IMG/VR virus record: IMGVR_UViG_3300011952_000024 | Reading direction: 5' to 3' (one strand) | Source: a virus | Lineage: Duplodnaviria > Heunggongvirae > Uroviricota > Caudoviricetes | Length of the DNA: 5,099 bases | Shown: positions 1 to 5,099 of the stretch, in pieces | Numbering within the stretch: the stretch's first letter is position 1 | Layout: every line of letters starts with the position of its first letter | Notes under the pieces: model-generated | Told to the model about the DNA's origin: nothing | The model's input: only the letters and a program-made list of their open reading frames with translations | The model's database searches: none | Program-made: the position numbers and the translations under genes

Positions 1-290
1 TCTTCCGTCATGGCACCGAGAAAATCATTCAGCGTACCTGGTCTGGAACCTTCATAGACGGTAATGGTCCCGGCATGTGAAGGCGGAAAACCTTCAACCA
101 GCAGGGTGACGCTGTACTGGCCATACTCAACATCCATGCTGTAACGTCCGGCTTCATCCGGATTTTCAGAAGCCACCGTGTTCACCAGTACCGTGGTGCT
201 GTTACGCTTTGCCTTCAGTTGAATAGTGCAGTTCTGTATTGGTTTTCCCGCACCATCTTTCAGCACACCTGAGATTTTTACTGCTGCCAT
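1..290 (-). CDS. stf: Side tail fiber protein Stf, N-terminal 96 codons only; the gene continues beyond the left edge of the window
   Basis: Not in the ORF track. My manual minus-strand translation from ATG at 290..288 reads MAAVKISGVLKDGAGKPIQNCTIQLKAKRNSTTVLVNTVASENPDEAGRYSMDVEYGQYSVTLLVEGFPPSHAGTITVYEGSRPGTLNDFLGAMTE with no stop before position 1. This resembles the N-terminus of lambda Stf as I recall it (MAVKISGVLKDG...), and the position directly downstream of lom matches lambda gene order. A GGAG lies 5 nt upstream of the ATG (plus 296..299, read on the minus strand). Confidence 0.82.
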   Translation of the reverse strand, partial: MAAVKISGVLKDGAGKPIQNCTIQLKAKRNSTTVLVNTVASENPDEAGRYSMDVEYGQYSVTLLVEGFPPSHAGTITVYEGSRPGTLNDFLGAMTE

Positions 291-301
291 ATCCACTCCA
301 C

Positions 302-328
302 AAAAAAGCCCGCCTGAACCGGCGGGCT
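302..328 (-). terminator. Putative rho-independent terminator between lom and stf (minus-strand transcription)
   Basis: Plus-strand 307..314 (agcccgcc) is the reverse complement of 321..328 (ggcgggct), giving an 8-bp GC-rich stem with a 6-nt loop (315..320). The A-run at 302..307 on the plus strand is a T-run immediately 3' of the hairpin on the minus strand. It lies 27 nt after the lom stop (355..357) and just before the stf RBS. Confidence 0.55.
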
Positions 329-354: not shown

Positions 355-954
355 TCAGAATTTATAACCGACACCAACGATGAAACCGTCAGTGCGCCAG
401 TCGCCACTGCCGGAACCTTCATAAGCAATATCAATGGCCACGGATTCGGTCGGGTTAAACTGCACGCCAGCTCCCCACGCCAGAGACGTGTTGCTGTGGC
501 GACCGTCATCACTTCCGGTCAGCACATCGTGCGTTTTCCCCTTGTTGTCAGTTACGCGGATATAATCTCCGGAGAAAGTCGAAACACGGCTGTAAGCCAT
601 ACCCGCCATCGCATACGCGCTGAACCATTCATTCACGCGCACAGACGGCCCCGCCATCACGCTGAACCAGCGGTTACGCACGGAATCTTCATGCCAGCGG
701 GTATCGCTGTAACGGGTAAGCTGGCGATTCTTGTCTCCTGCATAGCTGAATGACGTCACCATCCCCAGTGTGTCCGTAAACTCATAACGGTATTTCACGT
801 TAATCCCGTTCAGATCATCGCTGCCGGGAACGTTCGTCGAGGCATGAAGATACCCCGCGCTCAGCGTGGACTGATGTTCAGATGCCCATGCAGGCGCACC
901 GGATACGGCCAGACAAATGGCTGCGGACAAAATGGCGGCATAAAGTTTACGCAT
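355..954 (-). CDS. lom: Lom outer-membrane protein (Ail/Lom/PagC/Rck family 8-stranded beta-barrel); lysogenic-conversion cargo gene
   Basis: 199-aa ORF with an N-terminal signal peptide ([24 protein letters not shown], then SEHQ), alternating beta-strand segments and a C-terminal aromatic residue (…GVGYKF) typical of outer-membrane beta-barrels. Sequence is near-identical to lambda Lom as I recall it, and the gene sits immediately downstream of J as in lambda. RBS GAGAGG 5 nt upstream of the ATG (plus 960..965). Stop TGA at 355..357. Confidence 0.93.
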
Positions 955-978
955 AATTACCTCTCGCTTTTCTGCAAT

Positions 979-1002
979 AAAAAAGGCACCATTTCTGGTG
1001 CC
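979..1002 (-). terminator. Putative rho-independent terminator downstream of J and upstream of lom (minus-strand transcription)
   Basis: Plus-strand 985..991 (ggcacca) is the reverse complement of 996..1002 (tggtgcc), giving a 7-bp stem with a 4-nt loop (992..995). The A6 run at 979..984 is a TTTTTT tract directly 3' of the hairpin on the minus strand, followed by ATT. It sits in the 69-nt gap between the J stop (1024..1026) and the lom start (954). Confidence 0.6.
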
Positions 1003-1023
1003 CTTATATGGGTTATAACAATT

Positions 1024-4000
1024 TCAACGAATACTGATGCCGGAAGCGGCTTTTTTGGTCACAATCACCGTACAGTCGGTGATATTGCCTGCCCCCTGAT
1101 TGCCTTTCTGGAAAATCTTAAACTCCAGAGTGACGCTACCACCACCACTAGGCATATCAATAACTGCACTGTAACTACCGGGAATGGCCCCTTTAGTTTC
1201 TCTGGATGCGATTAATACACCGTTTTTGCGAACTTCAAAACCATAACCCGTGTATCGCGTGCCTCCTGGGTTATTTCCGCTCCCCGGATCGTCATACGCT
1301 ATACCGTTAAAAATAATGGGCGGAATAATAATCTGGCGGTCAAAGTTATGATCATCGCTGATGGTGACTGTAACCGTACCGTTTGGTGTTTCCGTGTTAC
1401 CCCACGTACCGACTTTTTTCGGGAAGGCTTTTGATACAGCTTTAACGAAATCCCCTCTGACCTGGGTCGCCTCCAGCATGCCCTTAATCGTACAGTTCTG
1501 GTTAATCGTGACATTGTTGAGCGTTCCTGAGTTCGCATTCACACTACCACTGATATCCGCATTTTTAGCGGTCAGCTTTCCGTCTGATGTCAGGGAAAAT
1601 ACCGGAGGACTGCCACCGCTGGTAATGGTGGGGGCTGTCAGGCGCTTCAGGAACACGTCGTTCATGAATATCTGGTTGCCCTGCGCCACAAACATCGGCG
1701 TTTCATTCCCGTTTGCCGGGTCAATAAACGCGATACGGTTAGCGGCAACCAGAAACTGGCTCAGCTTGCCTTCCTCCGTGTCCTCCATGCTGAGGCCAAT
1801 ACCCGCGACATAATGTTTGCCGTCTTTGGTCTGCTCAATTTTGACGCCCCACATGGCATTCCATTTATCGTTAGCGTCCTTCCACTCTTTCGAAAACTCA
1901 TCCAGTCTGCTGGCGTTATCCTCCGTCAGGTCGACTTTTTCCAGCAGCTCTTTACCGAGATGGGATTCGGTTATCTTGCCTTTGAAAAAATCCAGGTAAC
2001 CTTCCGCATCATCGCTCGCCCGACCGACGGCCTCCACGAATGCCGATTTGCCAACGGTGTTCACACTGCGAACGTAAAAATAATAATCATGGCCCGGTTT
2101 GATATTGATACTGGCGGCTATCCAGTACAGCGCCGTACCAAGATAGCGGGCTGTGGTTTCAACCTGCCTGATATCGGTAATCCGCGTTTCCGAGAACCAG
2201 AACTCAAACTGTACCGTCGGATCATAAACCGCAAGATGCGGCGTGGCGGTTATCTGAAAATAGCCCGGAGTCAGCTCAATCTGTGACGGCGCTGCCGGTG
2301 CGGCAATCCGGAACGATACCGACGCCGGATCGCCCTGCTGTCCCCACGCATTTACCGCCCGGACTGTCAGCCTGTAGTTCCCCAGCGCCAGTTGCGTGAA
2401 GCGGTATGTGGTTTCCGTCGTCCGGGCCGTGCTGACCAGCCGCTCACTGCCGTCGTCCGCTGTTACGGTCAGACGGAGCAGGAAGCTCACGCCCTTCACC
2501 ACCTTCGGTGTGTCCCATCGCGCCAGCACCTGGTATTCCCCACTGTCTGCGGTGACTTCTGCGGTCAGGTGCTGCACCGCTGGCGGCGTGACACCATTCA
2601 CCGTGCCGCTCTGGTCGCCGTCAAAGTGCGCCCCGTTATCCACGATGGCTTCTTTTTCCGGTACATGCTGCACGGCGGTGATGGCATACGTGCCGTCGTC
2701 GTTCTCACGGATACTCACGCAGCGGAACAGGCGCTGGCGCAGCGTCGGCAGCTTCAGCCCCCACACGCTGTATTCAGCAACGCCGTCAGGAACACGGCTC
2801 ACTTTCACCTTCACGCCGTCGGTGACGGACTGAACCTCCACGCTGACCGGATTGCCACTTCCGTCAACCAGGCTTATCAGCGTGGTACCGGAGGATGGCA
2901 GCGTGATTTCACGGTCGAGCGTCAGCGTCCGGGTCTGGCTGTTTACCGCCAGCACGCGACCACCGGTGCTGATACCGGCATAGTCATCATCGCAGATTTC
3001 AATGACATCGCCCGGTACATGGCGAAGCCCTTCAGCACCCACGCTGAAGTCCACGGTCTGCGTTTCCAGCAGTTCCGTTTTAATCAGCCACAGCCCGGCG
3101 CGGTGCGCCTGCCCCCGGCTGGTACAGCCAAAGGCATCCATCTTCGTGACGTTACGACCGTAACGGGCAATGGCCTGCGTATCTTCAACAAGCTCTGTCG
3201 CCGTCTCCCAGCCGTTATCCGGGTCAATCCAGTTCACCTCAACGGCATTATGGCGGTCCTTCAGGGCGCTGAAGCTGTAGCGGAACGGCGCGCCATCATC
3301 CGGCATCACCACATTACTGCGGTTATAGGTCCACACCTTATCCGACGGTCGGTCCTGCACGAACATCAGCGTCTGCCCGTTCCATACCGGCATACAGCGC
3401 ATCGCCGAGCAGAAATCACTGAGCACATCCCACGCCTTGCGCTGTGTGGTCAGGTACGCATTACAGGTGATGCGCGGCTCCGTGCCGCCAAAACCGTCCG
3501 GCACCGACTGATCGCAATGCTGGCCGATGACATACAGCGCCCATTTGTCCACATCCGCCGCACCAAGACGTTTCCCCATGCCGTAGCGCGGATGGGTCAG
3601 CATATCCCACAGACACCAGGCCATGTTGTTGCTGTATGCCGGTTTTAACGTTCCGTCCCAGATACCGCTGTATTGCCGCGTCTGCGGGTTATAGTTCGAC
3701 GGCACCTGCAGAATGCGCCCGCGCAGATGATAATTACGGCTCACCTGCTGGCTGCCGAACTGCTCCGAATCCACCTGCACGCCGACCAGTGCCGTGTTCG
3801 GGTAGCACTGTTTCACATCGATGATTTCGGTGTATGACGACCAGAGCGTTTTGTTCTGCAGCTGGTCTGTGGTGCTGTCCGGCGTCATCCTGCGCATCCG
3901 GATATTAAACGGGCGCGGCGGCAGGCTACCCACCACCACCGAGGCCAGATACTGCGAGGTGGTTTTGCCCTTAATGGTGATGTCTTTTTCCGTCACCCAG

Positions 4001-4437
4001 CCACCGTTACGCTGTATCTGAACCAGCAGGCGGACTTCCGACGGATTCCGGTCCCCCTTTGAGGTGGTTTCCACCAGTGCCTGCACACCGAAGGTAAAGC
4101 GCAGACGGTCGATGTTTGCCGACGTAATGGTGCGGGTGATCGGCGTGTCATATTTCACTTCCGTACCCAGCACCGTCTCGGAGCCGGAGGATTCAAACCC
4201 CTCCGGCGGTGTCTGCTCCTGCTCACCGGCACGGAACACCACCGTGACACCGGAGATGTTGGTATTCCCCTCAGTGTCCAGCACCGGCGTACTGTTCAGC
4301 AGCACGCTTTTTAATCCATCCACCGGACCTTCAACCGGCCCTTCGCTGATGGCATCAATCACACTCAGCAGTTGCGTGGACTTCAGGTTGTCCTTCGCTT
4401 CGCGCGGGGTATGCCCCTTACTGCTTCCTTTGCCCAT
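1024..4437 (-). CDS. J: Tail tip central fiber / host specificity protein J (lambda gpJ family)
   Basis: 1137-aa ORF. The N-terminus [34 protein letters not shown]… and most of the length match lambda gpJ as I recall it, including the fibronectin-III-like central region (…[31 protein letters not shown]…). Size is close to lambda J (about 1132 aa). Located between I and lom as in lambda. GGAG lies 8 nt upstream of the ATG (plus 4446..4449). Stop TGA at 1024..1026. Confidence 0.96.
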
Positions 4438-4459
4438 TCGTCATACTCCATAAACGACA

Positions 4460-4479
4460 AAACCGCCCGGAGGCGGTTT
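4460..4479 (-). other. Inverted repeat / RNA hairpin in the I-J intergenic region; function unknown
   Basis: Plus-strand 4460..4467 (aaaccgcc) is the reverse complement of 4472..4479 (ggcggttt), giving an 8-bp stem with a 4-nt loop (cgga). On the minus strand it is followed by TTTTGTCGTTTAT, which is T-rich but interrupted. It lies between the I stop (4498..4500) and the J RBS. Confidence 0.35.
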
Positions 4480-4497
4480 CACATGAAATATTTTGCA

Positions 4498-5099
4498 TCA
4501 GCGGCCAATCACCACAACCTGACCACCATCCCCTTCGTCTGCCGTGCTGATCTCCTGAGAGACCACCCGCGACCCCACGCGCATTTCACCGTACAGAACG
4601 GGCAGAACATTGCCCTGGGCAACCATGTTATCCAGTGAGGAGAAATAGGTGTTCTGCTTACCGTTATCCGTTGTCTGTGTACGGGGAGTTCTGGCTTTCG
4701 GTGCCAGCATCTGCGCCACACCACCGAGCACCATACTGGCACCGAGAGAAAACAGGATGCCGGTCATACCACCGGCCCCAATGGCTGCCCCCCATGCTGC
4801 AAGGGTGGCTCCGGCGGTAAAGAATGATCCGGCAATGGCGGCTGCCCCCAGGACAATCTGGAATACGCCACCTGACTTGGCCCCGGCGACTCTGGGAACA
4901 ATATGAATCACAGCGCCATCAGGCAGAGTCTCATGTAACTGCGCCGTTAACCCGGACGTGCTGACGTCCCGCCCGGCAATCCGTACCTGATACCAGCCGT
5001 CGCTCAGTTTCTGACGAAACGCCGGGAGCTGTGTGGCCAGTGCCCGGATGGCTTCAGCCCCCGTTTTCACACGAAGGTCGATGCGGCGACCAAATCGTT
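4498..5099 (-). CDS. I: Tail assembly protein I (lambda gpI family), 3' portion; the 5' end lies beyond the right edge of the window
   Basis: The track ORF 4498..5070 begins at an internal GTG, but the frame stays open to the window edge; the upstream in-frame codons read …RFGRRIDLR-VKTGAEAIRALATQLPAFRQKL…, matching lambda gpI residues about 23 onward as I recall them. A glycine/alanine-rich hydrophobic segment and the C-terminal …TADEGDGGQVVVIGR are consistent with gpI. Stop TGA at 4498..4500, 60 nt upstream of J. Confidence 0.9.
   Translation of the reverse strand, partial: RFGRRIDLRVKTGAEAIRALATQLPAFRQKLSDGWYQVRIAGRDVSTSGLTAQLHETLPDGAVIHIVPRVAGAKSGGVFQIVLGAAAIAGSFFTAGATLAAWGAAIGAGGMTGILFSLGASMVLGGVAQMLAPKARTPRTQTTDNGKQNTYFSSLDNMVAQGNVLPVLYGEMRVGSRVVSQEISTADEGDGGQVVVIGR

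Follow-up and report, generated by a model that had tools for sequence, protein, structure and literature searches.

What does a lambdoid phage recognize on its host when its tip attachment protein J follows lambda for most of its length and then departs from it at the C-terminus? The question is raised by a 5,099-nt stretch of DNA, referred to here as the window, which contains an intact J gene of this kind together with its neighbors. Swapping the C-terminal part of J between lambda and 434 (h434) is a textbook determinant of host range, and the pairing of 434 J with OmpC has been known since the 1970s. The reading that we favor, and hold with high confidence, is that the window encodes a lambda-type J (aa 1 to ~970) joined to a phage 434/h434 specificity region that would recognize OmpC.

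Gene order and mosaic setting of the locus

The genes of the window all lie on the minus strand in the K-I-J-lom-stf order of the lambda tail tip, as seen from the list of open reading frames (ORFs) and Pfam searches on the flanking ORFs, and they are collinear with the annotations of lambda, phage 434, and lambda h434 imm21. Only the last bases of K are present, at the extreme right end of the window, where they overlap the tail tip assembly gene I (4498..5099). The start of I lies beyond the right end, and the gene is identified by Pfam Lambda_tail_I and by synteny with lambda h434 imm21 and 434. J itself, the tip attachment protein or central tail fiber, is intact in the ORF list (1024..4437, stop codon included) and encodes 1137 aa. 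Downstream follow lom (355..954), which encodes a 434-type Ail/Lom outer-membrane β-barrel protein of 199 aa (Pfam Ail_Lom, E = 8e-120), and the 5′ part of the side tail fiber gene stf (1..290; Pfam phage_tail_N, E = 4.5e-51), represented by its N-terminal 96 codons before it runs off the window.

A pattern scan places a terminator-like hairpin with a T-run directly after J (982..1005) and a second one after lom (307..328), both on the minus strand and both where the phage 434 record has an annotated terminator. Such sites are no more numerous in the window than shuffling would predict, so it is the conservation of position that supports these two sites as terminators.

Over the whole window, the closest phage records are lambda h434 imm21 (96.7% identity) and phage 434 (96.3%), and the closest complete Escherichia coli genome reaches 97.3%. 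No record identical to the whole window was found among the phage records and complete E. coli genomes searched, and the window is therefore read, on its nucleotide relationships, as another mosaic lambdoid prophage or phage. A side feature of the same kind lies at the 3′ end of I and the 5′ end of J (4400-4600), where identity to lambda and lambda h434 imm21 drops to 92-94% in surroundings that are otherwise 96-100% identical; the dip represents another small mosaic patch.

The J C-terminus, its boundary, and the cassette around it

Full-length homology, domain order, and gene order all identify J as a lambda-type tip attachment protein. By phmmer, its residues 1-1136 align to residues 1-1131 of lambda gpJ with E = 0 (structures 8iyk and others), and its Pfam domains run in the order FNIII-A_GpJ, Phage-tail_3, Ig_J, Ig_J_second, Phage_Tail_Tip, Ig_GpJ_C. 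We compared it in an alignment with three J proteins, those of lambda (gpJ, NC_001416), phage 434 (OL657226), and lambda h434 imm21 (OM418627). Against lambda gpJ, alignment columns 1-973 are gapless and 97.4% identical (948/973), whereas columns 974-1143 contain just 64 identities in 170 columns (38%), 17 gap columns, and five indels, a contrast between the N- and C-terminal parts with a Fisher p of 5.9e-79. The first-pass annotation of this DNA had called the first ~980 residues lambda-like, which agrees with the alignment except that the boundary lies slightly upstream, at residue ~970-974. It had also described the remainder (1027-1500, corresponding to codons 980-1137 without the stop codon) as unlike the lambda C-terminus, which it gave as ending in KKQALGISVV. 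The divergence is borne out by the 64 identities in 170 columns, the lambda ending is confirmed in NC_001416, and the peptide cited for the window is found exactly in J.

The boundary is equally sharp in the DNA. Followed in the direction of J, identity to lambda stays at 0.93-1.00 as far as window position ~1600, falls to 0.87 in 1599-1500, and is ~0.4-0.6 once past 1500. Exact runs shared with lambda last appear at 1584-1547 and 1545-1529; from ~1517, or J codon ~974, mismatches are dense. In Pfam, the fiber domain PF09327 ends at aa 972, exactly at the onset of divergence from lambda.

Beyond this point, the protein departs from lambda in sequence but stays within the same family. The specificity region as defined in PMC6646904 (aa 960-1137; 1027..1560, minus strand) has 78 of 184 alignment columns identical to lambda; counted from residue 960 or from residue 974, identity is far from the roughly 90% over aa 960-1132 that the first-pass annotation had named as the mark of a retained lambda C-terminus. 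We also considered whether the divergent C-terminus is an unrelated domain. This was rejected, as it aligns with lambda from end to end (phmmer over the whole length, E ~6e-29), belongs to the same Pfam family, and has the same predicted fold (see below).

The divergent C-terminus is instead of the phage 434/h434 type. It is identical to phage 434 J at 160 of 164 residues (97.6%) with no gaps, and likewise 97.6% identical to J of lambda h434 imm21, the sequenced phage whose J is the historical host-range allele h434 (PMC9119081, which covers the origin of the allele and the sequenced hybrids). Across the full specificity region (aa 960-1137), 174 of 178 residues match 434 J in a gapless alignment with the same indel pattern, above the 95% identity taken as the lower limit for this type (at least 95% over aa 960-1137), and a tblastn comparison over 173 aa puts identity at 97.7%. 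The DNA of the divergent region has an identity of 0.97-1.00 to 434.

This form of the region is widespread. The last 173 aa of J are 100% identical in phage mEp460_ev081 and 99.4% identical in several Stx-converting and other coliphages, and the last 185 aa are 100% identical in the J protein of a prophage of E. coli AR435. The cluster of proteins that share the identical domain sequence has 624 members (P0001), and the 537-nt 3′ end of J is matched in 2,134 of 5,426 complete E. coli genomes, with 509 records at ≥99%. Given these genome matches, the cluster size, and the phage matches, the J C-terminus is the common natural form of the phage 434/h434 specificity region.

The AR435 prophage (NZ_CP029115, 1540-5037) presents a further observation on modularity. 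Its J has 1165 aa and a specificity region identical to that of the window, joined to a shaft and upper fiber that are 35-79% identical to the window J (alignment columns 801-1000). The region is thus reassorted independently of the rest of J.

The divergence from lambda does not end with J. It continues without interruption from J codon ~970 through the J-lom spacer and into lom as far as codon ~160-175, and beyond window position ~480-435 in lom, identity to lambda returns to 0.8-0.9. Windowed DNA identity and the map of mismatches and exact runs delimit this stretch as 435..1530 (minus strand), with 97-100% nucleotide identity to 434 throughout and ~40-60% to lambda. The window Lom is of the 434 type: its 199 aa are 98% identical to 434 Lom, compared with 47% identity to the 206-aa lambda Lom. 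The J specificity region together with the greater part of lom thus differs from lambda as one cassette of ~1.05 kb.

Two side features of the flanking sequence can be added. The N-terminal region of stf (1-297, minus strand) has only ~85% DNA identity to both 434 and lambda, and its product has an additional Ala next to the initiator Met, so that a third lineage takes over in the window right after lom; the receptor-binding end of stf lies beyond the window. On the other side of the boundary, in the lambda-like part of J, Phe924 is kept and the peptide encoded by codons 902-933 (window 1639-1734, minus strand) is identical to that of lambda. This peptide is reported to trigger the activation of HepS, an anticodon nuclease encoded by a prophage (PMC13043305), and sensitivity of the window phage to HepS is therefore predicted.

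Fold, hypervariable loops, and the likely receptor

The Ig-like C-terminal receptor-binding domain proper (RBD) occupies aa 1001-1136 of J (1030..1437, minus strand), where PF12421 (Ig_GpJ_C) matches over model positions 1-134 of 135 with E = 6.2e-25 and a score of 88.3 bits, against a gathering cutoff of 26.2. An alignment of 24 homologs shows an invariant scaffold interrupted by four variable, indel-rich segments, which in J fall at ~aa 1007-1019, 1045-1064, 1078-1090, and 1107-1118. The AlphaFold2 monomer model of aa 960-1137, computed with this 24-sequence alignment as input, has a mean pLDDT of 81.6 and is all-β from ~aa 1000.

A Foldseek search of the PDB with this model returns four top matches, 8xck, 9wcb, 8xcj, and 9wca (E ~1e-15, TM 0.67-0.70), with all subsequent matches ten orders of magnitude weaker. 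Entries 8xck and 8xcj are the closed and LamB-bound states of the lambda central fiber, and 9wca and 9wcb are the closed and OmpC-bound states of "A8 gpJ 713". The structural comparison suggested in the first-pass annotation hence returns the lambda gpJ fiber and its receptor-binding domain among the best matches, with the same fold. The rmsd is high (~8 Å) because the monomer model leaves the N-terminal fiber strands unconstrained, and the comparison is used at the level of fold only. The PDB matches included no solved structure of a 434-type domain, and our literature search found no paper describing 9wca/9wcb, the A8 chimera being traced to the Eligo preprint.

Relative to lambda, the indels in J are located at lambda residues 1011/12, ~1043, 1078, 1099, and 1109-14. 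Maddamsetti et al. (2018, PMC6646904) placed the specificity region at aa 960-1132, with hotspots of indels and entropy at 1012, 1048/49, 1077/78, and 1107, and found lambda residues 1012 and 1107 to be required for gaining the use of OmpF. The indels in J correspond to these four published hotspots.

For the 434 allele, the receptor has been established genetically: lambda carrying the J of 434 binds OmpC, which is the receptor of 434 (PMC3509688, PMC11101478). The primary reference for this pairing is Hantke 1978, here as cited in the Eligo preprint. The 434 central fiber is likewise described as OmpC-targeting in PMC12502783, where an AlphaFold3 model of 434 J with OmpC has three loops in contact. 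For mEp460-type phages, which share the window domain, our literature search was less informative, returning only a broad remark that OmpC serves some of the lambdoid mEp phages as receptor, and it returned nothing specific on the receptors of ECOR13/PhiR phages. Taken together, the near identity to 434 J and the published genetics suggest that the most likely receptor of the window J is OmpC, not LamB. Two proposals of the first-pass annotation thereby gain support: that the receptor-recognition module has been exchanged relative to lambda, as seen in the 38% identity of the C-terminus to lambda against 97.6% to 434, and that the receptor is probably a protein other than LamB.

A mode of action can be proposed by analogy. 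In lambda, the receptor-binding domain has four loops, L1-L4, and receptor binding spreads the domains apart, a change that travels along the β-prism fiber and the α-helical shaft until the tip opens (PMC11101478). Homology with lambda gpJ suggests that the distal tip of the central fiber is formed by three copies of the Ig-like domain, and the homotrimeric state of the window J at this tip is likewise inferred from the lambda structures (PMC11101478). The four variable loops at the bottom of the domains would enter the extracellular mouth of a trimeric porin, whose binding may push the three domains apart. This movement would then pass up the fiber, and the tail tip would open so that DNA can be ejected. 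Loops of the 434 type would recognize OmpC as the porin instead of LamB. For this opening mechanism, both the lambda and the A8 structures serve as the templates.

The window J is not an exact copy of the 434 protein, however. It has Asn1019 in place of Asp, Ile1108 in place of Val, Gln1110 in place of His, and Gly1115 in place of Arg (Trp in h434). All four positions lie inside hypervariable segments, namely the first and the last, which leads to an alternative in which these substitutions change the porin or the OmpC alleles that are recognized, for instance to a strain-restricted subset of OmpC or to additional use of OmpF. The same positions are polymorphic among 29 representatives of 434-type clusters (Asp1019 in 8, Val1108 in 10, His1110 in 10, and Arg or Trp1115 in 10), and small changes in related proteins can matter. 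The A8 and 1A2 gpJ chimeras tell the OmpC of K-12 from that of EDL933 (Eligo preprint), and phage 21, whose native receptor is LamB, gains the use of OmpC through one J mutation (PMC11336670). As a single change in phage 21 J can add a receptor, the loop substitutions do count as a caveat. Nevertheless, we consider a shifted range unlikely. The domain is 97.6% identical to an allele whose receptor has been established by genetics, and positions 1019, 1108, 1110, and 1115 are not known to be linked to receptor switching among 434-type domains. Moreover, the residues of the window J are the majority states at all four positions among the 29 representatives, which makes it more likely the common functional form than a specialized derivative. 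Were the range shifted after all, these four positions would be the place where porin-allele specificity is naturally tuned in the most frequent J type among E. coli prophages.

A second alternative is that the domain still uses LamB in spite of its divergence. Lambda and phage 21 both use LamB (PMC11336670 for phage 21) with domains that are only ~55% identical, and so divergence alone is no proof of a change in receptor. Yet the window domain is just 48-51% identical to either of these LamB-using domains, and the nearly identical 434 allele makes lambda dependent on OmpC (PMC3509688, PMC11101478), which leaves continued LamB use very improbable. Hardly more credible is a decayed prophage remnant with a J C-terminus devoid of current function: most matches do sit in bacterial chromosomes, and the best whole-window match in the collections is 97.3% rather than identical, but J, lom, and what the window contains of I and stf are uninterrupted ORFs of the canonical length, the terminators are conserved, and the same domain is present in the plaque-forming isolates 434, mEp460_ev081, and phiSTEC1575-Stx2k.

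We therefore retain the reading of a lambdoid (pro)phage of E. coli with a J whose hub, FNIII, shaft, and fiber (aa 1 to ~970) are lambda-type and whose specificity region is that of 434/h434, with OmpC as its probable receptor. The initial observation of a C-terminus exchanged relative to lambda is correct but already known, as publications already cover the allele, the receptor it uses, the modular nature of the region, and the hotspots within it. What our analysis adds is that the cassette, defined relative to lambda, takes in most of lom, and that an identical specificity region is found on different J shafts in other prophages. Its practical value is in annotation, where the central fiber should be labeled as 434-type and predicted to be OmpC-dependent. 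Under this prediction, loss of lamB would not protect a host, whereas loss of ompC or a change in its allele probably would.

Comparison with known J-type systems

Among the J-type fibers described so far, the lambda gpJ receptor-binding domain, which binds LamB (8xcj/8xck), provides the structural reference. The window domain belongs to the same Ig_GpJ_C family, is predicted to adopt the same fold (TM ~0.7, E ~1e-15), shares the conserved scaffold residues, and takes the same position at the tip of the trimeric fiber. It differs in sequence, being ~38-48% identical depending on the stretch compared, in five indels at the loop hotspots, and, according to the literature on 434, in its receptor.

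The A8 gpJ chimera (9wca/9wcb), an OmpC user for which the structure of the complex with OmpC is available, has the same family and fold. The window domain is 50.0% identical to A8 gpJ and 50.8% to phage 21, and its loop lengths differ from those of A8. These values are far from the high identity expected within an A8/phage 21 type, and the domains of A8 and phage 21 form a lineage separate from that of the window. The OmpC contacts of A8 are consequently not transferable to the window domain residue by residue. Within that other lineage, the J C-terminus of phage 21 (OL657228, 3694-7176) is 82% identical to the OmpC-binding A8 gpJ (9wca). Since phage 21 uses LamB and A8 uses OmpC, the receptor is not fixed within one domain sequence type.

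The EHEC siphophage phi330 also has a lambdoid J-type fiber, and its C-terminal domain was found to target OmpC by knockout and complementation (PMC12502783). The same study reports the domains of phi330, 434, and lambda to be 35-40% identical in pairwise comparison, so that phi330 represents, by these published figures, another allele class.

The closest counterpart is phage 434 itself. Its J likewise has 1137 aa, with first ~970 residues that are lambda-like and an identical pattern of C-terminal indels, and it is followed by a 434-type lom and by terminators at the same positions as in the window. The differences include the four amino acids in the loop segments described above, 7 nt in the last ~520 nt of J, and the N-terminus of stf, where DNA identity to the window is only ~85%. 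We also considered whether the junction arose by recent recombination in this phage alone, and rejected this because the same boundary is present in 434 and in lambda h434 imm21. With the same lambda-like N-terminal ~970 residues in 434 J, the junction in the window represents an old boundary shared by the family.
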